NCBI GenBank assembly: GCA_054600435.1
Contig: BAAIJX010000005.1
Location: 744,001 to 808,000 of the forward strand
Origin: Neophaeotheca triangularis
Lineage: Eukaryota
Length of the DNA: 64,000 bases
Reading direction: 5' to 3'
In this document: one piece after another, positions 9,872 through 62,730 of the stretch
Numbering within the stretch: position 1 is the stretch's first letter
Layout: every line of letters begins with the position of its first letter
Position numbers and translations under genes: made by a program
Notes under the pieces: generated by a model
Told to the model about the DNA's origin: nothing
The model's input: the letters and a program-made list of their open reading frames with translations, nothing else
The model's database searches: none

Positions 9872-10454
9872 TATCACGGTGGTGGTGGTACTGTGTTCGT
9901 TGGGTGCCAGGAAGAAGAGGTGTGTAGCTTAATAAGTCGGAGCCGCAAGGACATGTGTATGTGACAGCGTTTTGCTGGCGTGGCGGTTGTGAAGAGGTGT
10001 TATGTGGAAGCCAGGTTGTGACACCACTTGTGCTTGTGGAAGAGACCCATGTGTTCAAGCTTCGAAACATGTGCTATGTGGAGCTTGGTGCCACTTCTCT
10101 TTGACGACAAATTGCGCTCGATATACCTCTCGACTCTGGATTATAGTGAGACGTGATCGCATTTTAGGCTTAAAGCTAGAAATCAGAGTTACAAAGGCTG
10201 TACCAGACCCAGCAGGCCATAGAAAAGAATGAAGGCGATTCCCGAGGTCGCTGTACTACAAGGTGCGACAGGTTGTGAAGTAGCTCAGGATGGGATTCAG
10301 ACATGAATGAAGCGATATTATATCCAAAAGTGCAAATAAAGACACCGGCGCTGTCATTATGCGTGTTGCTTCCTATACGTCCACATATCAGTTTGCGTAA
10401 TGAAAGGAAAAAGACATGATCAAAGTGGCAAAAAGAAAGACGAGAGCTCACTGC

Positions 10455-10464
10455 GATTCGAACC
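10455..10464 (-). promoter_or_regulatory. Pol III B box (TFIIIC site) downstream of the ncRNA terminator
   Basis: Minus strand GGTTCGAATC matches GGTTCGANTC(C); not part of an intact tRNA; ~65 nt past the T6 run. Confidence 0.65.
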
Positions 10465-10527: not shown

Positions 10528-10533
10528 AAAAAA
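10528..10533 (-). terminator. Pol III oligo(T) terminator
   Basis: T6 on the minus strand immediately after the 3' stem-loop. Confidence 0.7.
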
Positions 10534-10768
10534 GTTCGGGTGTCTACGAGTGTGTTCAGGTATACTCGGACTTCCCTACGTCTTTATGGGTCGGCTACGC
10601 CTGGTGTATGCGGAAGCTGATGGGCGTTGATACCACTCATTTTGCGGGAAACCACGCAGGTAGAGGGATCGACTCGGGTTGCGGGATACCACGCAGATCG
10701 AGCTTTTGCCAACGTTCTTTCGAAGTCGTCAAGTTGCGGGAAAGCACACAAAGACTTGACGCGACGGA

Positions 10769-10779
10769 CCGGTACACCA
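10769..10779 (-). promoter_or_regulatory. Internal Pol III A box (+14 to +24)
   Basis: TGGTGTACCGG matches TRGYNNANNNG. Confidence 0.55.
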
Positions 10780-10813
10780 GACGTCGCCGACCATTATTTC
10801 GGTTCCGAAATCA

Positions 10814-10824
10814 TTTTATATATA
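10814..10824 (-). promoter_or_regulatory. TATA box of the ncRNA
   Basis: TATATATAAAA begins 32 nt upstream of the first paired G (10792). Confidence 0.7.
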
Positions 10825-13215: not shown

Positions 13216-16200
13216 ATGGCGCGGACTCTTGTATCGCAAGAAACTTCTGAAGCACTAGACGTCAGTCAGGATTACGAAACCCCGCCCAAAGCCTCGATCC
13301 CCCTTGACAATCAGCCTGAGCTCGCGGTTTCCCAAGCCGACGATAGTACCCAACTTGTCAAAGACTCACTTGAGAACCACGAGGGTGGCGCGGTGCAACT
13401 ACCAGGCTTTCAGGCAGCCGCTGAAGACAACCAGGACGACTTGTACGAGACGAGTCCCCAAGCAAAGGTCCAGCTGGTCCAAAAATCGGCGACCCAGCGA
13501 GCTTCCCAAACACAAGTCACCCAACCATTCAAGAATCAGCAGCGTGAAGCAGTCTTACAGAAAGGGAAATCTTCTGGCCAAGGGTCTCCACGAGAGACGC
13601 ACAGTCAAGGCCCTGTGGTGGATGCTCAGCAAGGCGTCCAAGCGCAGCAAGCATACTCGGAAACCTCCCAGGCTGTGAAAGCCTCTACTTCGGCAGTGCT
13701 CGCAAAAGGTTCGCATTCGATCCCAACGTCTTGAAGTGCACTACTAATGCCTCACCGCTCAGAGCGCGGACAGCACGGCCTGCCGGCAGCTGTTTTCTCC
13801 CCGAGCAGCAAGAGTTTGACTAGGTCCGAACGTCTCCAGGACAAATTTGAGCCATTTTCTGTTGCCGACCCAGTCACAGACCCCTTCGCCAAAGCGATGC
13901 CGAGCCAACGCACTAGAGCTTCGGGCTCCCAGGTTCCGCCTATCCAGACGTCTCATCCAAAGAGCAAAATCTCAGCAGCATTTGCAGCATCAGGAGCATA
14001 TGTCAATGGCTCCTACGCCCGCCAACTCGGCAAGTCAGGAAAAGCATTTCCTGCTTCTGCACCAACGACAACGACCAGCATCGCGCCCGCGGCTGCTTCA
14101 ACCCCTCTGACATCGATGGAACTGCTAAAGGCCCGGAAGAACGCCAACGCTTCCTCTCAACATCCCGCTTCTGGCAGTCAAATCTCCGCACGAGATGGAT
14201 TTAGAGCCATGGAAGCCAATGCCTCTTATCAGGCTTCGACTGCACCTCCTGTAAAGACCTCTACTGCAGCTAGCCTTGCCGGCGAGCCTAATGGGACCTC
14301 GACAGCAGCTGTTATCGGTGACACCGCTTCCACAGGCAAGCCCGGGAACGATCCAAACGGACTCCAGGAGTCAGCCGGGGGTAAGAAGACAAGGCAAGCG
14401 AACGTAACAGCGAAGAAGAAAGGCGCCGCCCAGACAAAGAAAGACAATCAGCCACTAGCAAAAAGGGCAAAGCAGGCCGCGCAGCGTTCAAGCACCGCCG
14501 CTCACACTCGGAAGGACAATGGCAAGGGTCAAACGCAGGTCGGCGGGGAAGTGGAATCGAGCACGCGAATCACAAGGGCGGCAGCAAAACGACGCAATGA
14601 AAAGCCAGCCGGCATGTACGCAGAGAAGAGCTCTTCTGATGAGCCTGATGAGCTCAGCGTAAAATATAAAATCACGAACGGTGGCCAAAATTTCGCAAAT
14701 TCTGTCCCCAAGGAGCGTCGCAAGGGTGAAGCAAAGGTAATCGCAAAAGGCGCTGAAGAGCCATTAGCGTCAGGAAAGGAGGGCAAGTCCCATGAGAAGG
14801 CTGTTGAATCGGATCTGGTCACAAAGCCTAGCGTGGAAGACATGTCGCATTCCGGAGGGGCTGTCGTCAACGGGAAGGCCAAGCAGATAGAGGCACCCAA
14901 GTCGATGCCACCAGCGGGAAATGGCGTGCATATCAACTCTTCAGTCCCGCCTGGCGCATCTCAAGACGCCCCTATAGTCTTATCGGACCGACCCGAACAG
15001 TCTTCTGACCCAGAGCTCGAACCTGCCGACAAGCTAGCGGCACCAGTGGCTGTTCAGCCCCAACCGCGTGGTGTCGCCCATCATGTGCAAGCTCCAGAGA
15101 CACCGGCCAACCTTCGCTCCAGCCCACCGCTAAGAAATGTCGCTGAGCGTCAATCGAACGCAACCAGTCGTATACAGGATAGCGGAGATCGAAAGCCCAA
15201 GATCATTGGCTTCAGCAGAGCAGGCCCGCTTAATCAGGGGTCTGCTTCTGCTCGCAAACAGCAGCTTCACTCCGCATCGATGTATCGGCCCATTGAACTC
15301 ACTCAGAAAATCCCTTTAGCTGCCGAATGCTCTCGAGGTGCAGATTATCCCGGATTGCGGCGGACAGTTGACCGCTCATCTATGGCCCCAAGTGCGAGGT
15401 CGACTCGTACAGATAGATCGGCTGCTCCTAGCAACGTTGCCGAGGACGTTTCAGAGGCTCTTGCGGGCCTTCTTGGTAGACTTACGGCTCCTGCAGACCT
15501 CTCACAATCGCGACATGCGAAGGCAGATATTGTCGAAGCTCCTGCCAAGCAATCTCAGATGGCGTCGGTCGAGCCAAACGAAGACGACGAAGGATATGTC
15601 GCCGTTGATGACTTTGAAGGGCCACCTTTTGCGCAGCACGATGAAATACCCGCTGCCGAAGACCTTCAACGGCCCACTGATTCCCAGATCGCGATGCCCC
15701 CTCCGCCAAGTAAACCAGTACCAATGCCCAAGGTACAGCGCGCCCCGATCGGCCCGGTAATGCTAGGAGGTCACGTAGCTTCTCGCCCACACGCCGATAC
15801 TCCACGCCGTGCGCAGTTCTCAGTGTCCCCAAAACGAGCTGCTGAGGAACCATCCTTGGATTCTCCTCCAGCAAAGCACCAAAAAGCGAGATCGACGCCT
15901 TTCAACCAACCTGACGATAACGGTGGCTATGCATTGGCTAATGACAACCACTCAGCACGTCAGACTCACGCAAACTCCAGCACAGATCTGATCCTCGATA
16001 CCAGTGCAAGAAAATACTCATCCAGAGCAGCTGCCGAGTCTCAAGTGCAGGCCCCTCCCAAAACTGACTCGAACCTGCAACTGCGTGGTCAACGCAAAGC
16101 CAGTAGATACAGCTCGCAAGGTCAGACTGTCGATGTCCACGGAAGCCCCGTTCCAGATGCTCTAGATGTTCCGTACCGCGCCACTGTATTAGAGACGTTC

Positions 16201-17112
16201 TCGCAACAAAACCAGGGGTCTTCAGAAGACGGCGCAGTCTTGAACGCAATCACCAGCACCAGAAAGAGCGACATTGGTGGCAACGCTGCGCTTTCAGCCA
16301 GGCCCACTCGGAAGCTCTCGCGCAACGCCAAGACTATGCCAGGCCTACCAGACACCGAGTCGCGGGCTCCCGCTGACATGGTCTCTGGAAGGCTCGCGAG
16401 TCGACATCTTGTTCGTAACCAAAAGAGTTCAGAGCCAGATCCTTTCACAAGCTCCGAAGATGCGACAGCCCAGGGCCAACAGCGTCGCCGAACATCTGCC
16501 TTCCTTACCCAGTTGATGGAGGGTGTAGCAAAAGAGCAACGCGATGCTAGGATCGGCAATAGCAACGACCAGATCAATGATGGCGAGCAGCCGGACCCAG
16601 ATGAAACGTTGGTAGAGCCAGAGCCGACAAAACGAGTGCGCCACGGCAAAACGAAGGACTACGAGTCTGAAAGCGAATCTTCCTCCTCCGGTTCCTCGGT
16701 CAGCTCTGAAGAGACTGTCATTATCGAGGAGGACGACATGGTCACTTGGCGAAACGGACTAAAGCCTCACCAGATGAACCTCTTCGACGAGCTTGTCAGT
16801 GTCTCTCACCAATTGGTCCGCCACATCGTCGACAAGGAAACTGCAACCCAGCACATCCTGTCTGACTACCGTCGTCGTGGTGAGAATCTTATCAAGCAGA
16901 TGCAGCTTCTGCACAAAGCGAGAAGAAGTGAACACATCGAGTCATTGAAGAAGAGGAAGAGGGCTGTCGGCGAGCAGCTGGATAGGGCCGTGGACGAGCT
17001 CGGGAGACTACGGGCTGGTATCGAGAACGAACCCGCCGACGAGCCTACGTCAAAAAGATCTCGCCTCGATGCTGATGCGGCCTTGCAGCAAGCCCTTGAG
17101 GTGTTCTGCTGA
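13216..17112 (+). CDS. Large low-complexity protein with C-terminal coiled coil (intron 13709-13762)
   Basis: Two long same-frame ORFs joined by a 54-nt GTTCGC..TACTAAT..CAG intron; S/P/Q/A-rich; C-terminal helical block WRNGLKPHQ..LVRHIVDKE. Confidence 0.75.
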
Positions 17113-17845: not shown

Positions 17846-18809
17846 TTAAGACAGAGGCGGCTTCTGCCCTCCCTGCACCTTACCAAAAGGCGTATCCGGC
17901 CGGGCCAACATCTCCCCATCAAGCTCAATATCCACCTTTTCGTTATAAAAGCAGCACAACCTAGACATCACAAACAAGATTAGCTCCAAAACCCTGTACA
18001 CATCTCATGCCCTTCGCAATGAAAAAAAAAAAAAGCGAAATGAAAAATAGCAAAGAAAGGAGAGAAAAAACTCACCCCTCAACCTTCGCACACTCCAACG
18101 CGGGCCTGTCATAAAACCAAACCACGTCCTCCCACCTCTCCCCTCCCTCGCCCCTTAGATCAACCGAATAATACTCCGCCTCGCCCTTGTACGGACACTG
18201 CGTGCGCGTCTCCGTCCGCCTCAAAACCCCCACATCGACAGCCGTAAGCGGCAAGTAGAACCTCGCGGGCAACCCCGTCTCGTACAAATGCATTGCGCTG
18301 CTGCTCTCGGCGATGGTGCGTCCGGCTATGGAGACCTTGATGGGTCGCGTTGAGTGCAGGATGTCGATGCGTTTGAAGGGGTCTTTGGGGTGGACGTGGA
18401 TGGGAGTCGATTCTTCGAGCCACTGGTCCACGGCGGCGAAGGAGATTTTGACGAGGTCGGCGAGCGGGGCCGCGGCACCGCTGAGGTCGGCGGCGAAGTG
18501 GATTATCTCGGTTGTGGTGCGGGATCCCAGGGTGAGTTTGAGCTGGGTGGCGAGGACGGCGCCAGTGGTTGGATGGGTTATGGGCGTCTGCGGGGTGAAG
18601 ATGGAGTCGAAGTTGGGGAAGGCGGAGGTCGGGAGGTAGAATTGTGGGTAGTAGGGGTGTTCCCAGACGTAGAGGGCGGAGGTTGTGCGGGCGATGTATG
18701 TGTGGGCGAAGACAATTTGGACTAGGCGTGGGGTTGGGAGGGTTTTGTGAGGACCTTGGGTCGCCATTTTGAGGGCGATGTCTTGGATGGGGAGCGGCTT
18801 GGGGGACAT
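17846..18809 (-). CDS. DUF427 (tandem) family protein (intron 18075-17961)
   Basis: VWEHPYYPQFYLP, HPKDPFKRIDIL, LYETGLPARFYLP, TQCPYKGEAEYY, spliced to G|LCCFYNEKVDIELDG. Confidence 0.9.
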
Positions 18810-19230: not shown

Positions 19231-20685
19231 CTACCTCCTCCCAGTCTTCCTACGGCGTCCAGCGCCTCCATCACCACCGGCTCCAACAGGCACACGACTA
19301 ATACCATACCCGCCGTTGCCACCATGCTGCTCAGGCACCATCTCGACCTGCACGCCCTGATCGTCAGAGGAGGAAGACGAAGAGCTTCCGGCCTGACCTC
19401 TCACTTCCTGACTCAGGCCACTACCCTTTCTACCGCTGGATCCGGCCGTCATTTGAGGGTCCGAATGCCCTCTCGGCGCTAATGGACTCGAGCCGGGCGC
19501 TACTCTACGTAGTGTGGAGCCGTAGAGGACGTCTGGAGGACCGCTGACATTCCGTCGAGCTCCTGCAGTCGCGGCCCCTGGCGCTGCAGGCCCGGGACCG
19601 TAATCGTCGCGGTAGGAAGGCGAGTATTGTTGAGCGTTGGAAGCGGAGCGTGTGCGAGGAGCGGTAGGCTGATACCAGTCTGGCTCGTCTGGGATCGAAG
19701 TGTGTGAGCTGGACGAAGGCGGTCGCATGCCGGCAGGTGGAGGGTAGAAGCGAGGATGGTAGGCTTGGTAGCTAGGCTCTGGAGGGGTTGATTCTCTGCG
19801 TGAATGTTTCGAGGTAGACCGGGAACGTGCACGAGGAGCTGTATTTGGCGGAGAGTAGTAGATTGGTGTGAAGACGGGTTCTCCGTCTGGGCCGGGTACG
19901 AAGATGCCGGGAGCGCCCTGGGGAGTGTAGTCTTGCGGAGCCTGCTCTGCAGATGGTCGTCTATTCATTTTTGGCTTGGATTTAGAAGCCGTCGGTGAGC
20001 TTTGTCCAAAAAGGCTGAGGCTTGCTTTTCTGCCCTTTTTCTGACTTGCGAGATTGGTTGAGCTATTGGATCGACTGCCGGCCTTGCCTTTCTGTTTCTG
20101 AGGTGTCGCAGGAGGGGAAGCAAGTGGCACTCGCGGTGGAGGCGGTGGCTGAACCAGCGGCTGGTTGGTCCTGCGCTCGATTGCATCCATTTCCTCGATT
20201 GATAAGTTTACGTTCGCCTTGCCCGTCGCTCTCGCCCTTGCAAGCTGATCCATTGCCGACTGATAAGCCATATCCTCTTGGTAGCCCGTACTTCTAGCAT
20301 TCCTGTAGTCTTGCGTAGCATATCCGTACCCATCATATTCAGGACCCGCAGAAACACCTTTGCCAGAACTCCGCCTATCCTGTCCAATGTCGTAGCCAGT
20401 GAAATGTAGTTCATCGCTCGCAAAACCCCTAGAGCCCGCTCTTAAGCCACGACCATCCAAGTATACACCCTGTCCATCATCCTCCTCGCTCTCAACTTCC
20501 TCAACACGCTCGCCGTAGCGAACAGGCTGGCGGAACTCCCAGTCCTGCGGATGTCTTCGCCTACCACCGCTACCGGGGGTCCCGGATGGTCTTCCCTCGT
20601 AGGGCGAAGAGTCTGGCGCGGCCGACCATCTAGACCGCCTCTTCTGAAAAACTATTCTCGATGGGCTTATCGAAGAAGCTCGCAT
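19231..20685 (-). CDS. Ser/Pro/Arg-rich hypothetical protein overlapping the 3' end of YIP3; start uncertain
   Basis: Long open frame with a helical core (YQSAMDQLARARATGKANVNLSIEEMDAIERR). The only early in-frame ATG lies inside the YIP3 CDS. Confidence 0.65.
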   Translation of the reverse strand: MRASSISPSRIVFQKRRSRWSAAPDSSPYEGRPSGTPGSGGRRRHPQDWEFRQPVRYGERVEEVESEEDDGQGVYLDGRGLRAGSRGFASDELHFTGYDIGQDRRSSGKGVSAGPEYDGYGYATQDYRNARSTGYQEDMAYQSAMDQLARARATGKANVNLSIEEMDAIERRTNQPLVQPPPPPRVPLASPPATPQKQKGKAGSRSNSSTNLASQKKGRKASLSLFGQSSPTASKSKPKMNRRPSAEQAPQDYTPQGAPGIFVPGPDGEPVFTPIYYSPPNTAPRARSRSTSKHSRRESTPPEPSYQAYHPRFYPPPAGMRPPSSSSHTSIPDEPDWYQPTAPRTRSASNAQQYSPSYRDDYGPGPAAPGAATAGARRNVSGPPDVLYGSTLRRVAPGSSPLAPRGHSDPQMTAGSSGRKGSGLSQEVRGQAGSSSSSSSDDQGVQVEMVPEQHGGNGGYGISRVPVGAGGDGGAGRRRKTGRR

Positions 20686-41066: not shown

Positions 41067-42380
41067 ATGGCAGCCCAAACCCAAACCCAAGCGCAACCCA
41101 AACCGAAACCCAAAGGCCAAAACAACAAACCCAAACCAAACAGTCGGGGCGGTCCAAATCAACAAGCAAACAACAATGGCGGCGGACCGTCGGACGAAGA
41201 GCGAAAGCAAGAATCCTCCAAAGCCGCCCAAACGGCCCTGAAAGCCCAACGCGAAGCGACACGCCTCTCGCAAGCTGCCGCCGGCGCCGGCGACCCGAAC
41301 GAACGACAGAAACTACTCAACCAAGCTCTGAACAAGGAGATCGAGGCCGAGTCTTTTGGCAAAACGGCCAAGTACCTGCAATCTGGCACTTTTCAGGGCA
41401 TGCTGGTCGGAGGGGGTATGGGAGCTGTGCCGGGAGTTACGTTGGGCACATTGACAGGCACGCTCGTGGGAGGAGTGTCTACACTAGTGACGGGAGGGCT
41501 GGGGTCGGCAATTGGTGCGGGAGTGGGCGCGGTGCATGGCTCGTTCTTCAAGTTGGGTGACGTGGCTGGGAACGGTCTCAGGAAGCTTACGGGAGATTTG
41601 CCGGGTTGGGTGGCTTCGGAAGAGCAGAAGGCGACTTTGGAGCAGATGATTGGGCAGATTAACGATCAGGAGAGGCCGTCGGAGGGGGATTTGGAGGGTA
41701 TGAGCGCGGGTCAGAGCGTCGAGACCATAAAGGATGCTGGGACTGAGGCGGGAAATCAGGCTTCGTCTTGGTTGCCTGGGAAGGAATCCATTCCGACGTG
41801 GCTGGGAGGAGGAGGAGGAGGAGGAGGAGGTGGTGGTGGTCAGGAGCACAATGCACAAAAGGCTCAGAATGCGCAGAAGGCTCAGCAGGCTCAGCGGCAA
41901 CAGAGGGAACAGCAGCAGCCGCAGCAGGGGGGGCAAAATGGACAGGGACAGACGAATGCGCAGAGCAGTCCGCAACAGGCACGACCGAGCCCGAAAACAC
42001 GTAGCAGTCAAGCTGCGCCCGGGTCGAAGAGGCCTAATGAGCAGGCCGCCCCAAGGGACAAGTCTAGAAGAAGCAGTCTTGCCAACTCGGTGCAGACGGG
42101 TCAAAGACCGGCTTCAAGTGGTGCAAGCCAGGCGAAGAGCAAGCCGCCTTCCACAAACAGTGGGAACAGGCCCGCAACACGGAGCTCCGCGCAAAGTGGC
42201 CAGGAACAGGCTTCGAATACTTCAAACCAAGCCCCTACGGAGAAGAAGAAGCCCCAAAAGCTTCAAGTCCGGGGACAACAGCAACAACAATCACAGCCAC
42301 AATCGCAACCGCAGTCGAAAAAGACTCCGCGAAAGCTAGACAACAGGTCTAACAAGGCTAGTCAAGTGGCCGCCGCTTGA
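41067..42380 (+). CDS. Hypothetical protein with glycine-zipper hydrophobic segment and Q/S-rich tail
   Basis: 437-aa ORF; GxxxG-rich GMLVGGGMGAVPGVTLGTLTGTLVGGVSTLVTGGLGSAIGAGVGAVHG; poly-Gly from (GGA)n. Confidence 0.8.
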   Translation: MAAQTQTQAQPKPKPKGQNNKPKPNSRGGPNQQANNNGGGPSDEERKQESSKAAQTALKAQREATRLSQAAAGAGDPNERQKLLNQALNKEIEAESFGKTAKYLQSGTFQGMLVGGGMGAVPGVTLGTLTGTLVGGVSTLVTGGLGSAIGAGVGAVHGSFFKLGDVAGNGLRKLTGDLPGWVASEEQKATLEQMIGQINDQERPSEGDLEGMSAGQSVETIKDAGTEAGNQASSWLPGKESIPTWLGGGGGGGGGGGGQEHNAQKAQNAQKAQQAQRQQREQQQPQQGGQNGQGQTNAQSSPQQARPSPKTRSSQAAPGSKRPNEQAAPRDKSRRSSLANSVQTGQRPASSGASQAKSKPPSTNSGNRPATRSSAQSGQEQASNTSNQAPTEKKKPQKLQVRGQQQQQSQPQSQPQSKKTPRKLDNRSNKASQVAAA

Positions 42381-45544: not shown

Positions 45545-47191
45545 TCATTCATTATTTCCTTCGTACGCAATCAACCCAGCCCTCTCCTTATGCTTCTTGA
45601 TGGTCTTGTGCGCCCACGCTCGAATGATATCCCTCGTCCGCTGCCCTTCGGCAACCGGCGGCGCGCCAACTTTGGCGTACTGAATTCTCTCCAACGGGCG
45701 ATCGACCGCAATCAAGTATCGGAAAAGCACGGCGATATCTTGAGTAGGCGAAGACGGGAGCTCAGTGATGAGCTTCTCGCCCTCGAATCTCTCGCGGCTG
45801 TGCTTCCAGCCCGGTTGCCACATTTCCAAGACCTCATTCATTGGTTCAGCGCAGTCGAAAGCGATGCGCACGTTGTTGGAGAGGCGTTGGTTCTGACGCG
45901 AGAGTTTGCCCTCGATTTCCTGTAGCAGCCAGTCCCATTCACGCCATTGCTCCCGAGTGTAGGGTTTGGCGCGGCGGGCGCCGTCACCTTCCCAGCCGAT
46001 GAGGAGGTTTTCGCGATAGCTGATTTGGGCCATGTGGCGGAGCAGGCGGCCCATGACGGTGACTCCGAGGGTGACGCTGCGGTTGTCTTTCCAATGGATA
46101 GCTGCAGTTTCCAGTTCGAGGTTGTACTTCTTGTCTGCCAAATATTGCAAAGCTTGCATTGTGGCCTTTCGGATCTCGTTATGGTCATAGACAACAATTC
46201 CAAGTGGGCTCCTGAAGGGTAGGCGCTTGGTGGCCAAGTCGATGAGCTCGCTTTCTTCCAACGCCAGCTTGAGCAGCTTGATCTCCTCTCCTTCGAGCTT
46301 GGTGGTGTCCACTACGTGCTTGAGATCCATCTTACGCAAGTGTTCGCTTGGCTTAATGTAGTGGCGATCAATGGCGATATCCGGGTCCACGTACGCAGTG
46401 GCGAGATCATCTCCGATGGTGGGTAGGAATGGTTCGTCAACTGATCTGGGGGAAAGCTGAGGCTCTTCAACTCCTTGACCAGCGACCTCCAACGCCTGTC
46501 TTTCGTTGCGTTGTTTTTGCAATATCGCTTGTTTCTTCACTTCACCCACGTCGACCAGGTAATGCGTGAGGATGGCGAAATCACCAACAAGGTCCGTGGG
46601 AAAGCCTTCAAGAGGGCTCACCAATTCGTCCTGTCGGTATGCAAGTCCAAATTCGTCGAGGAACGATGCCAGTACAAGCTGAATTTGCATCTGGGCCTCT
46701 CCGATAGTCGTCTCCCGCCCTTCCATGCTCAGGATCAATGTCTCAAGCTCATCTTCCATCCTCCGCAAGACTTGTCCCTCGGCATTGCTGTAGCTTCTTT
46801 CGCTGCTATGGATCACCATCGCTTCGAGTAGGCGGGTCATCACTAGCATTCGCATGACGATCTTTCGGCTGTCCATCTTGAACCCCCAGTGCAACGACTC
46901 AAGGTTGGTCTCTGCCTTGCCAGAAGCGACATAGTCGAGTGCCCGTAACAGAGAGCGGGTACCTTCCTTGGGTCGATAGGAGTATGCTCCGGTCACGCTG
47001 TCGAGTCTTGTTACTGGCTCGTTTGCATCGGCATAGGCCGAAAAGTCGTAGAATTGCGTCGACTCGATGGCACTGTCGAGAATGCCGACTTGAGATGGGT
47101 GTAGCCGGCTGCAGTCCACAAGAGCCTCCACATGAGGTGCGTGTCTGGGCCGGTTTTCGCCAAAAGGCGTATCCTGGGATGAAGAAGCCAT
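45545..47191 (-). CDS. Hypothetical protein, two copies of the same unnamed domain
   Basis: Long ORF from ATG 47191; internal repeat DCSRLHPSQVGIL..GFPTDLVGDFAILTHYLVDVG / DTTKLEGEEIKLL..LPSSPTQDIAVLFRYLIAVD. Confidence 0.75.
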   Translation of the reverse strand: MASSSQDTPFGENRPRHAPHVEALVDCSRLHPSQVGILDSAIESTQFYDFSAYADANEPVTRLDSVTGAYSYRPKEGTRSLLRALDYVASGKAETNLESLHWGFKMDSRKIVMRMLVMTRLLEAMVIHSSERSYSNAEGQVLRRMEDELETLILSMEGRETTIGEAQMQIQLVLASFLDEFGLAYRQDELVSPLEGFPTDLVGDFAILTHYLVDVGEVKKQAILQKQRNERQALEVAGQGVEEPQLSPRSVDEPFLPTIGDDLATAYVDPDIAIDRHYIKPSEHLRKMDLKHVVDTTKLEGEEIKLLKLALEESELIDLATKRLPFRSPLGIVVYDHNEIRKATMQALQYLADKKYNLELETAAIHWKDNRSVTLGVTVMGRLLRHMAQISYRENLLIGWEGDGARRAKPYTREQWREWDWLLQEIEGKLSRQNQRLSNNVRIAFDCAEPMNEVLEMWQPGWKHSRERFEGEKLITELPSSPTQDIAVLFRYLIAVDRPLERIQYAKVGAPPVAEGQRTRDIIRAWAHKTIKKHKERAGLIAYEGNNE

Positions 47192-58602: not shown

Positions 58603-60760
58603 CTAACGTGATGGAGACTCGGTCTCTTCGGTCTCACGCTCGTTGAGCGACAATATCACCCCGTCCGCTGCCCGCAACCTATGCCTCTCCACGACTGGTG
58701 GCATGCTATCAGGCAGTCAGCTTTCGCTATTCAATGACAAGGCACTACTTTGGTGGCCACTCTCATACCTAAGCACTTTTGGGTTTCCGTCATCTAAACG
58801 TGTCCCTAGATAACCGCATCGTGTCGGGCTCGTGGCCAGCACCTTCAACCGGTATTCGCCCGTGTCTTTGTCGGCCAAGTCATACAGCGAGTTGAAAAAG
58901 TCTCGGGTGTCATGGTACCGTTTGCGGTCTTCGTAAAAAGATACGCAATCGAGAATGAAGAACACCGAGCTTTTCTTAAGCTGTGCGTCCAGGAGACACA
59001 TGAAGATCGCGAGCAGATCATCAAAGCTCGTACAATCTGCACGTAGACCGGACAGAGTGACAGCTAGGAGGATGTTCCTTTCCCCCTTCTGCAGCAGCTG
59101 TCCTGTTGCATCTCGAAGAATATGATCAGCTCTGTCGTGGATGTTCCGATAGCAGGTCCAGTACAATACGACATCTTTACTTTGCTCCGCCAAAGCTTGC
59201 GCCATCATTGCAGAGAAAAGCGACACCGGCGAGTCCCGCTCGTGTGAAGCTTCTCGGCCGTTGACGACCAAGATATGCGATGATGAGTCGCTTTGGAGCC
59301 ATGTAAGAATCTCCGCCGATTGGAAGAGCCACACGGCACGATCTTGCGCTCGGATGTTGGTATCGATACCAGTTTTGAGACAGTCGAGGAGATCTTGGGT
59401 TTGTTTCACTGGGTCATATCCAAGCTCCAGAAGAAAGCCCCCTGCGGATATGATTAGCCGCCTGCCGATGCCATGTGTCTCTAACAGTACGGGACTTACG
59501 TTTATTAGTGTCAATCACGACCCCAAGCTGCTTCTCTAGCGCTAGAATAATTTCTTCCCTCTTTCGCGAGTGCTCTTCCTGCTGACGCTTCTCGCCTTCA
59601 TCGTATTGCAACTTTTCGCACGTGCGCTCGAGGGTGGCCACAGCTGTTTCCAGATTACCGGTGAAGAGTCCGAGCGCATTGTTCAGAACATTGACCTCGA
59701 CTCCACCTTCTCGCGAGCCTGAGGGCGATGTGTCAACGTCCATTGAGAAGATAATGGCGATTTTGATGTTGGAAGACTTACTAGTGTACATCTCGTGCAT
59801 CTTTGCGTGCAAACCTGCATCTGCTATTTGATCTATTTTGTGACCCAACCCTCTCAGTGCCGCTCGCTTCTCCTTCAACCCCTTCGCATGATCGCTACCT
59901 TTGAGTGCGGAAAATGCTTTAGTGACCGGATTCCTTGTCAACCAAGCCAGGCATTCTTGCAAGAGTTGTAGGATCGTCACCACCAGTTCAGACACGTGAT
60001 ACCTCATCATCCCAGTATCGTAACACCGAGCAAGATCCTTGACAATCTCCATCGTGAATGGGATTTGCTGAATCGAGTCTATGATCTCGCTGTTGACTTG
60101 ATTCAATTGGTGGGCAGCGGCTAGTACCAACTTCATGCCGCCACAAATTCCAGAACCCTGCCACGACTCCGACGGGAGGAACTATAGTTAACATTGATTA
60201 TTAGCTCAACTCTGCAAGAAGATTTGATTCCATCGTACTTGGAGAAACTGCTCGCATGGCACCGTTGAGCTCCGCAGCTTTCGAAGGCACTTTCTGATGT
60301 GGTCCGATTTTGCGTTGGATAGGTATTTGTACCGATCGTAGGCGACAACGACTCCGTTCAGCTGCTCAACAACATCGTTCCATCGATAATCACTCGATCT
60401 GTCCAGGCGAAAATCGAGTTTGACTTTGTTGTCCTTTTCGAATCTCGCTGCGGCTTCGAGAAATTCTTGCTGCTGACGGTTCATTTCGTCCGTCACCTGG
60501 ATCGGCTCGTTGATGACTTGGCTGTCATGCTCGACATACCGTCCTTTGGGGACACTGTAAACCGCATCCGAAGCGCTGAGTTGCTCGAATTTGGGATGCA
60601 CGCTCGCAAGGTGATTGTCCACGAATGCCACAACTGGATTCAGCTGCGGTTCGAGTCCTTTCTCTCTTAGCGGGATGGCGGACATGGTTACTGGAGTGCT
60701 CGACGGTTGATAAATTACGGTCCTTTCGAGGGCGGACATTTGCAGCGCTGGCGTCTTCAT
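58603..60760 (-). CDS. Multi-exon protein with degenerate NACHT/STAND-like NTPase domain and helical N-terminus (about 4 introns; first 60238-60182)
   Basis: ORFs 60206-60760, 59414-60136 and 58717-59514 join via GT..AG introns. WLQSDSSSHILVVNG..SPVSLFS lies at the Walker A position (no GK[ST]); VFFILDCVSFYE at Walker B; LKVLATSP. Confidence 0.7.
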
Positions 60761-62730
60761 CTATAGGAACCTCCATACCCAGCTATAGCTGCCACACGTC
60801 CCGGAGGCTGCCCCAAGGGCGCACGCAACGGCGCCAGAGTAGATGCTGTAGAGCATACACCACCAACATCGCCAGCTGCAGATCTCGCATCGTGCTAGCG
60901 GTCAGTGCATCAAGCGTGCTGGCACCTTAGGTACTCATTCATCTCTGGGTCGGCTCCAGAGCTGTCCGCTCCAGTACAGTAAGCCGCCACAGTGCTAGCC
61001 CGTAGACCACTGCTCGTTACTGACCGGTGCGACGCTGTTCGTGTTGATGCAGCCGCACATACGCAACCACTCTGACATCCACACCATCAATGCCTTTTAG
61101 GCTTTTACCTTGTCAGCTTACCCGTGCAGAAGCGACGTGACATTCTAGCTACCTACCTGTAAGCGCCTAGGCATCTGGATCACCACCGATGCCAAGCCCT
61201 TCAGCCTTGCCTTCACAAACTACAGTACTTAATCCCGAGTCGAATCCTTCAGCCTACAGCCTTATCTTTTTTTTTTTTTCCCTTCCACGGATCCCTTGCT
61301 ATCCATCCGAGGTATGGAGGGTGTTAAATCATCTCGCATCTTTCGTGGTTGTACTTGGTCACCTGCAGCTTGGTATTGACAAGGGCCTTGTCCTCTTCTC
61401 TCCGTACCTCAAATTCTGGATTTCCGTGCTGGTCCAGACTCGGACTTCAGCCATGCCAGCATGCCAGCCTTGCATTCAACCCCTCATCTTCATCATCCTG
61501 AACCAAAATAAGCCCGGAGGACGTTTCTACCGCCTTCATACCAGTTGGCAGAGCTCAGTCTGCGAAGCGCTTTGGGCTTGCCTGGGAATCATCTAGAGCC
61601 GAATATTTCAGCATTGTTCTCCTACCTCCTACCTTCTAAAAATTATCGACGGTACATCTTTCGACTCGTGTTTCGCACAGCTGGCACTGCATCTTTTAGC
61701 CACTTCCACCACGTTGGAGGTTGAGATCTGAGGTCAAAGACAAGCAAGTCTCAGCCTTGGGACCGGGCGGCAGTCGACCCAGTGTTCAAGCGGTACGTTT
61801 CCACTTCTGCTCTTCCACATGACATACAGGCCTACGTTATGTACCGAGGCCGTAAGCGAAAGATAGTGCTGTACTATACATCCCTCGAGCTCGTCGTTGC
61901 TCAAAGCTGAGTGTTGTTGATCTACGCAATATACGATCACACCATCCTAGAACAGCGGGTCTAGAGAAGAGGCAGGGTTATGTTCCTTGCTATACAATAA
62001 TACAACCTCAGCCTCGAATTTCCAGCGCCCCCTCGCTCTAGACACGAACGGCCTACGCTTCAGACAACAGAAACGACCGGCTAAAGTATACTAGAATTGC
62101 GTTGGCTCTGGAAACGGTCTTAAAGAGCCTTTGTACTCTTCATCAGCCTGAAATTCGCCTTAACACCCAGCGAGATTGAATTCAGCCCCCATCACGGAAT
62201 ATCGATGAATCGAGATACAACAAGGCAAGGAGCTTGTAAGTGGCAATACCATGAGCTTGCGGCTGCGTTCCTTTCACGACAGTGATGTTCAGACATCGGC
62301 TTGCGCGCTTATGCACATGGAGGAGTAGGGTCTCATTGGAGGTTGCACCGGCATGTCCGATGACTGACATGACCGGCCAAACTTGACTCCATGACTTTCA
62401 GGACAGCTCAGCTGTATGAAGACAGTCTCGCGTAGCTGTACACTCTAGGCTGTCAACTGTGCCGCCCACGAGGTAAAGTATCCAATATTGCATGCACACC
62501 ATGCAGCTTACCCAGCCGTAAGCTTCATTCAGGAAAGGATACGTCCGGCGTCTGCTCGTGTACACTGGACGGGATTGTATTGGCTGCCAAGCTTCAATGC
62601 GTTATATCAAGGTGCGACGACCCGCTCTTCCCGAGCGCAAACACATTACGAACGTTTTACTTTATCCTTGCAAAGGCCATTGACCGCGATTGTTTCTGTC
62701 TCAATGTAATTGCGATTGCCTCTCTCAAGG

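Follow-up and report, generated by a model that had tools for sequence, protein, structure and literature searches.

A candidate TATA-driven Pol III gene for an unclassified RNA with three iterated hairpins in a Dothideomycete

What, if anything, is encoded at positions 10528..10792 on the minus strand of the 64 kb window, by which we mean the whole stretch of DNA that was analysed? An initial annotation had described this intergenic interval as an unassigned Pol III-type structured RNA gene. In our analysis, much of that description stood: the locus had no Rfam or tRNA match, was present in one copy in the window and had a well-placed TATA element and T6 run. By contrast, the A and B boxes that had been assigned to it did not stand. 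The proposed RNA is 265 nt long including a terminal U6, and its base 1 corresponds to position 10792. We regard a genuine gene for an unclassified structured RNA, driven by the TATA element and terminated in the manner of Pol III, as the most likely identity of the locus, and on the strength of the DNA sequence we give this reading about half of our confidence.

The closing helix and the flanking signals

The initial annotation had proposed that the first 20 nt of the RNA pair with a segment further downstream, and this closing stem was present as described. The helix, P1, joins RNA 1-20 (10773..10792, minus strand) to RNA 185-204 (10589..10608, minus strand). Of its 20 positions, 18 are Watson-Crick pairs, 12/193 is a U-G pair and 8/197 a G/A mismatch. 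Its strands make up inverted repeat I9, which is 20 nt long and 90 % complementary and was the sole pair of at least 20 nt and at least 90 % complementarity among the 25 listed of the 45 inverted pairs. A pattern representing the P1 arm had two matches in the window versus 0.01 expected, and both were the P1 arms themselves. According to ensemble calculations, the pairs of P1 have probabilities of 0.86-1.0, and the helix is lengthened by three further pairs, between RNA 22-24 and 180-182, with a probability of ~0.9. The minus strand of the RNA folded with a free energy of -92.2 kcal/mol (z = -3.72), which was equalled by none of 200 shuffles. Folded alone, the 5' domain yielded a z-score of -3.75.

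A linker of 12 nt leads from the closing helix to a 3' hairpin, GGG-AA-GUC-CGAGU / ACUCG-UA-GAC-A-CCC, which the initial annotation had also drawn. According to the fold and to pair probabilities of 0.72-1.0, this hairpin occupies RNA 217-255 (10538..10576, minus strand), and it is followed by GAAC and then by the U6.

We then considered the signals on either side of this structure. A TATA element had been placed at -32 on the minus strand and was found there: TATATATAAAA (10814..10824, minus strand) extends from -32 to -22 relative to the proposed start, comprises the strings TTTTATA and TTATATA, and has its core TATAAAA at -28 to -22. The T6 run that had been named as the end of the RNA was likewise in place, at RNA 260-265 (10533-10528, minus strand), 55 nt after the helix, and is the proposed Pol III terminator. 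A TATA element ~25-30 nt upstream of the start combined with a terminal run of at least five or six T is the arrangement by which a TATA-dependent Pol III gene of the U6, 7SK or milR-1 type is recognized. On both strands of the 64 kb window, we counted 14 TATAAA/TTTATA strings and 14 places with a T or A run of at least six bases. Assuming uniform placement, a TATA string would fall in the 11-nt slot on the right strand with a probability of ~1.2e-3, and a T run would fall within 100 nt past the helix with a probability of ~1.1e-2. By our arithmetic, the joint chance of the two is ~1e-5, which AT-rich intergenic DNA might make ~10-fold likelier. Given how seldom the window contains a TATA-like string or six consecutive T or A, this layout is unlikely to have arisen by chance.

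The internal promoter boxes could not be upheld. At +14, where an A box had been reported, there was no match with up to two mismatches, and the sole such match inside the RNA on the same strand was at 10662-10652. The reported internal B box, at 10675-10665, has two mismatches, and matches of this quality occurred at chance level in the window (211 versus 205.8 expected). Post hoc, we noticed a B-box-like sequence with one mismatch, GGTTCGAATCG (10454..10464, minus strand), 64 nt beyond the T6 run. This sequence may represent a downstream TFIIIC site; the window contained 20 B-box matches with at most one mismatch versus 16.75 expected, and the downstream site alone is not significant. No tRNA-like arm was found around it. 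In the U6 gene of Saccharomyces cerevisiae (SNR6), a TATA element near -30 and a T-run terminator are accompanied by a B box beyond the terminator. The present locus resembles SNR6 in its TATA element near -30, its T run and the position of its one-mismatch B-box-like site past the T6, but its RNA is not U6, to judge by the lack of an Rfam match. Elsewhere in the window, two perfect B-box strings, at 60648 and 63408, have coding-looking surroundings and are not tRNAs.

The initial annotation had also assigned the RNA to the minus strand on the grounds that its wobble pairs are G-U on that strand only. This evidence was weaker than claimed, as it comes from three G-U pairs among the 73 pairs of the hand-drawn structure. 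On the minus strand, that structure has a free energy of -83.7 kcal/mol, and its plus-strand mirror has three C/A mismatches and a free energy of -79.3 kcal/mol. The plus strand of the RNA folded comparably to the minus strand (-102.4 kcal/mol, z = -3.49), and the basis for the choice of strand is therefore the TATA element together with the T6 run.

Three iterated hairpins inside the helix

Within the closing helix, we found three hairpins with near-identical apical units, which were missing from the initial annotation. The apical unit consists of a 4-bp stem, UGYG/CGCA, an 8-nt loop, UGSUWUCC, and a trailing A. These units lie at RNA 43-59, 98-114 and 135-151. The corresponding pattern had three matches versus 0.33 expected, and three matches were reached in 1 of 100 shuffles. 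Hairpin 1 (RNA 28-68; 10725..10765, minus strand) comprises a GUC/GAC base, a GUCAAGU/ACUUGAC stem and the apical unit UGUG-UGCUUUCC-CGCA, with pair probabilities of 0.81-1.0 in the outer stem and 0.83-0.84 in the apical stem. Hairpin 2 (RNA 90-121; 10672..10703, minus strand) carries the apical unit UGCG-UGGUAUCC-CGCA on a GCUCG/CGAGU stem and has a probability of ~0.5. Hairpin 3 (RNA 126-160; 10633..10667, minus strand) carries the apical unit UGCG-UGGUUUCC-CGCA on a CC-CUC/GAG-U-GG stem and has a probability of ~0.55.

Two smaller elements complete the inner structure. In helix P3, which was read from the sequence, the 3' strand CAACG (RNA 164-168; 10625..10629, minus strand) pairs with CGUUG (RNA 79-83; 10710-10714) with a probability of 0.37-0.45; this 5-bp helix can enclose hairpins 2 and 3 as a sub-domain. 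Between hairpin 1 and P3 lies a possible mini-hairpin, UUC-GAAA-GAA, with a GNRA-type loop (RNA 69-78; 10715..10724, minus strand; probability 0.25-0.33). Taken together, hairpins 2 and 3, P3 and the mini-hairpin have ensemble pair probabilities of 0.25-0.55 only, and the sub-hairpins folded singly were barely better than shuffles (z of -1.3 to -2.1).

When the three hairpins were aligned, 19 columns were invariant. Hairpins 2 and 3 have the appearance of a tandem duplication of ~37 nt. The basal stem of hairpin 1 is unrelated in sequence to those of hairpins 2 and 3 and retains the pairing, with a U-G pair where the other two have C-G. These differences provide weak within-molecule support for the minus-strand structure.

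We also inspected the coding potential of the region. An ATG occurs 2 bases upstream of the proposed RNA start, and the resulting 21-codon frame (10729-10794, minus strand), which reaches into hairpin 1, is probably without meaning. A protein-database search for relatives of the 104-codon open frame across the locus returned one candidate and none that scored, and a Pfam search of seven small flanking open reading frames identified no family.

Three iterations of one hairpin suggest a scaffold with several sites for protein. Our preferred explanation, which we consider about evenly balanced against everything else, is that a TATA-driven Pol III gene encodes a scaffold RNA restricted to this lineage, to which one protein binds in several copies. 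In this model, Pol III would start from the upstream TATA element of a stand-alone, single-copy gene and stop at the T6 run, and the product would be a stable, folded RNA of ~260 nt outside all described families. The 5' end would be locked in a closing helix of 20-24 bp, which would display the three near-identical apical hairpins. One protein, present in several copies or as an oligomer, could bind these hairpins as a repeated site, and the RNA would then serve as an RNP scaffold or a protein sponge. Pol III RNAs are bound by La at their 3' ends, and the 3' hairpin and U tail of this RNA would be expected to bind La in the same manner, shielding the 3' end. We infer the transcription of the RNA, the polymerase responsible, its protein binding and its function from features of the sequence.

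Small, stable RNAs that hold proteins include the Y RNAs and the bacterial sponge RNAs of the CsrB/RsmZ type, the latter acting via many short repeated hairpins. The RNA described here resembles the CsrB/RsmZ type in its repeated short hairpins and differs from it in motif, the CsrB/RsmZ type being moreover bacterial. Y RNAs are ~100 nt long and have both ends in the closing stem, which binds Ro60. By contrast, our RNA is 265 nt long, has a further 60 nt between the closing stem and its 3' end, and had no match to a Y RNA in Rfam. As of 2015, no Y RNA was known in fungi (PMC4726728).

Copy number, relatives and conservation

To the extent that sequence from other samples was available, we compared the region between genomes. 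The comparison used four DNA runs on the region, all of near-identical sequence and with no divergent relative among them. In runs X3, X4 and X5, coverage of the RNA was limited to 150-230 nt, with depths between 2 and 3.7. Run X2, from another strain labelled as the same organism, had nine differences in one contig covering 10449-11000 and six more in two shorter contigs. Of these, 2 fell among the 265 RNA positions and 13 among 399 positions of the flanks (p = 0.035, two-sided Fisher test), and none of the 216 positions of RNA 1-216 differed (one-sided p = 0.003). Both RNA differences, at 10568 and 10570, are in the 3' hairpin: C225-G246 is changed to U-G, by which the pair is kept, and U223-A250 is changed to C/A, by which it is broken. 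These data point to modest constraint on the 5' domain; X2 gives no evidence of constraint for the 3' hairpin.

Two further features of X2 concern the sample itself. A 13-nt insertion (TGCAAATAAAGAC) is present behind 10330, and the segment 10337-10478 is represented by two half-depth contig versions that differ at 2 and 5 places. The insertion and the half-depth contigs suggest that the sample contained two haplotypes or strains.

The copy number of the element bears on an alternative reading of the locus, namely that it is what is left of a small, non-autonomous DNA transposon (a MITE or foldback element) ~204-210 bp long and bounded by terminal inverted repeats of 20 bp. The neighbouring TATA element, 3' hairpin and T6 run would then be coincidental. 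The arms suit this reading, being 20 bp long and 90 % complementary. After one imperfect arm-extension step, moreover, TAA is found on both sides (left TAA-TGGTCGG, right CCGACCCA-TAA), although three nucleotides, in flanks rich in A and T, are poor evidence of insertion. However, the element and its arms were present in one copy in the 64 kb window. A single X2 contig spans the element and both flanks, from which we take it that identical copies are probably absent from the rest of the X2 genome. The interior likewise fits poorly, as it consists of direct hairpin repeats and not of the usual AT-rich filler. Finally, chance would have to account for both the TATA element at -28 and the correctly oriented T6 run, for which our arithmetic gives ~1e-5 to 1e-4. 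We consider a transposon remnant unlikely, though it fares best among the alternatives.

We next searched for relatives of the RNA. No homologue was found in scans of metagenomes, viral genomes or prokaryote genomes. The metagenome scan, performed with a two-hairpin pattern, returned 36 loci whose likeness to the RNA consisted of short repeat-like matches only; 10 of the 36 were scanned against Rfam, and no family was identified in them. The viral scan, performed with the stem arm, returned one single-arm match, the RNA being otherwise unmatched.

One metagenome locus, L010, drew attention in its own right. At 528-683 of a GC-rich contig, it contains five tandem 31-nt repeats, each with a hairpin UGUG-UGG(C/U)AUCC-CGCA-ACC, and the period of 31 nt is incompatible with coding. 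The repeat hairpin is identical to hairpin 2 at 18 of 19 bases; the contig is bacterial-looking and has no Rfam family. This likeness is a probable coincidence. A scan of prokaryote genomes for the L010-like hairpin returned one match in each of 27 genomes (L038-L064), approximately the number that chance would give in 596 Gb for a query of 17.5 specified bases. None of the 27 was in an array, and many were in Acidobacteriaceae or Sulfotelmatobacter MAGs. In these loci, the 18-nt motif may belong to a gene segment conserved within that clade and not be a product of chance.

Known RNA families and precedents

The initial annotation had seen in the RNA none of the hallmarks that it could check for U1, U2, U5, U6, 5S, SRP, RNase P/MRP, tRNA and snoRNAs, and had proposed an Rfam search as a check. 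In this search, Rfam 15 had no match at gathering score anywhere in the window. We then performed a relaxed search, with E up to 10 and lax filters, on 265 and 551 bases of the locus. It returned just chance-level matches to miRNA, snoRNA and cis-regulatory families, the miRNA matches scoring 20.5 and 16.7 bits versus gathering scores of 70 and 60. No SRP, RNase P/MRP, snRNA, Y, vault or 7SK model matched at E up to 10; more specifically, the covariance models of the U1-U6 snRNAs, U3, SRP RNA, RNase P RNA and RNase MRP RNA were all without a match at this threshold. ARAGORN identified no tRNA at the locus. Nor was there a tRNA-like head, as in a tRNA or a tRNA-derived SINE; matches to the A and B boxes within the RNA were at chance level. 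A search of literature text for the hairpin loop strings returned one match, which was unrelated.

A second alternative arises from the small RNAs of Neurospora. According to the available text of the relevant study, milRNA precursors in this fungus are made by Pol III, on which the major milRNAs depend; milR-1 relies on TATA-like elements and has neither an A nor a B box, and its figure legend marks poly-T stretches (PMC3547838). In milR-1, the Pezizomycotina offer a precedent for Pol III units that depend on TATA and lack these boxes. The same locus is also the source of a rival reading, in which our locus would encode a Pol III precursor of microRNA-like small RNAs: Dicer would cut the near-perfect 20-24 bp helix to ~20-22 nt and the remainder would be discarded. 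A fungal pri-milRNA is recognized by small RNAs of 19-25 nt that have defined ends, come from one arm of the stem and mostly depend on Dicer. As far as that text describes it, the Neurospora crassa milR-1 type shares with our locus its occurrence in Pezizomycotina, its intergenic position, TATA-like elements, the lack of an A or B box, poly-T and a stem-loop (PMC3547838). In addition, our helix opens with the first base of the proposed transcript, and its length would suffice for Dicer. By contrast, the RNA described here is branched and has repeated apical hairpins: a 160-nt branched domain with three conserved-looking hairpins lies inside the helix and a 3' hairpin lies beyond it, which is unlike a simple stem-loop. 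The miRNA matches in Rfam, as noted, were at chance level. We regard such a precursor as a slim prospect.

Slimmer still is the prospect that the RNA is a very divergent form of a known housekeeping RNA, namely an SRP RNA, an RNase P/MRP RNA or a spliceosomal snRNA, that escapes the Rfam models. A size of ~260 nt and Pol III-like signals would suit SRP or RNase P RNA, and the 3' hairpin contains a string, GGGAAGUCCG, which recalls the conserved CR-I element of RNase P/MRP RNA. However, this string lies 40 nt from the 3' end, too close for a partner strand to fit, and its own pairing is local. The motifs that we take to be typical of the SRP, RNase P/MRP and snRNA families were not visible in the RNA. 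These observations are in line with the absence of any such family from the relaxed search of 265 and 551 bases and with the negative ARAGORN result.

Two other candidates were rejected. The telomere repeat is TTAGGG, and no permutation of CCCUAA occurs in the RNA, which disposes of a telomerase RNA. An snRNA with an Sm site was rejected as less economical, as the U run is preceded by C and not by A and as this reading needs Pol II.

A described RNA of the same size is Afu-202 of Aspergillus fumigatus. The available text on this RNA gives 265 nt by coordinates, a 266-nt cDNA and 270 nt on a northern blot, and describes an intergenic, unclassified ncRNA that is conserved with its structure in four Aspergillus species (PMC2377427). 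In 2026, it was still measured as an uncharacterised ncRNA, according to the portion of that study at hand (PMC13015456). Compared by description and primers alone, Afu-202 and our RNA are alike in being intergenic and in their length of 265 nt. The two Afu-202 qPCR primers given in the available text (PMC13015456) matched our RNA no better than shuffled primers did, their scores being reached by 57-452 of 500 shuffles. Because the paper on Afu-202, in the text available, never names SRP, RNase P or MRP RNA, Afu-202 may itself be one of these. The equal length of the two RNAs may be a coincidence.

Finally, the initial annotation had likened the RNA to 7SK, an analogy that we found unsupported beyond general shape. 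In this reading, to which we attach very little probability, the RNA would be a fungal counterpart of 7SK, bound by relatives of LARP7 and MePCE and controlling transcription elongation. The outlines are indeed alike, with a paired 5' end, a branched middle and a 3' hairpin followed by a U tail; here, the paired 5' end and the 3' hairpin followed by GAAC and U6 are generic features. The RNA also has two GAUC strings, at RNA 94-97 and 122-125, which we take to recall the HEXIM site, but they flank hairpin 2 and compete with its basal stem. Neither the 7SK nor the arthropod 7SK model of Rfam was matched, whether at gathering score or at E up to 10. According to the available text on human 7SK, Larp7 binds the 3' hairpin and U tail and MePCE binds the 5' helix-tail (PMC3632141). 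As portrayed there, animal 7SK shares with our RNA a paired 5' end, a branched middle and a terminal hairpin with a U tail (PMC3632141). Animal 7SK is also a Pol III product of a TATA-type promoter and a protein-sequestering scaffold, an origin and a role that our RNA would share only under our proposed reading. It differs in having a single long 5' hairpin where our RNA has three iterated hairpins.

The partner proteins of 7SK bear on the same question. The host is a Dothideomycete: the presequence protease encoded in the window is ~70 % identical to those of Vermiconidia, Zymoseptoria and other Mycosphaerellales-like Dothideomycetes, its best named relatives. Pof8/LARP7-like proteins are described, in the text available to us, as missing in Ascomycota apart from Taphrinomycotina and Pezizomycetes (PMC7928011), which places the host outside the groups reported to have them. 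The origin of HEXIM and cyclin T is placed near animals and their closest unicellular relatives, again in the available text (PMC11482795). On these partial accounts, the partner proteins are absent or doubtful in the host lineage, and a fungal 7SK is unlikely because HEXIM is placed in animals and their closest relatives and LARP7-like proteins are missing from most Ascomycota. The probability that is left over after all of these readings belongs to ones that we have not thought of.

Returning to the preferred reading of a TATA-driven gene for a scaffold RNA, we tentatively propose, well short of an even chance, that a hitherto undescribed family of fungal Pol III RNP RNAs has its first member in this RNA, whose three hairpins would hold several molecules of one protein. 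To our knowledge, the Pol III products of fungi form a short and supposedly near-closed list of tRNAs, 5S RNA, U6, SRP RNA, RNase P RNA and a few others. If the proposal is true, one more abundant, structured Pol III RNA with protein-binding hairpins would amount to a new RNP in fungal biology, in a class, the Dothideomycetes, that includes major crop pathogens. Such an RNA would be a fungal functional analogue of the protein-sequestering RNAs, such as 7SK and the bacterial CsrB type, that evolved independently of them. The locus would also supply a native pair of TATA-type Pol III promoter and terminator, usable for example in guide-RNA expression. If instead the RNA is unexpressed, the locus would be a useful warning that what looks like a perfect gene layout can come about next to an inverted repeat of transposon type.

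Other observations concern the remainder of the window. Four long open reading frames had no Pfam family at E up to 0.001: 13747-17112 (plus strand, 1121 aa), 19231-20685 (minus strand, 484 aa), 41067-42380 (plus strand, 437 aa) and 45545-47191 (minus strand, 548 aa). The window also contained two homopolymers of at least 13 bases, the only ones of this length in it: an A run at 18022-18034 and a T run at 61267-61279.
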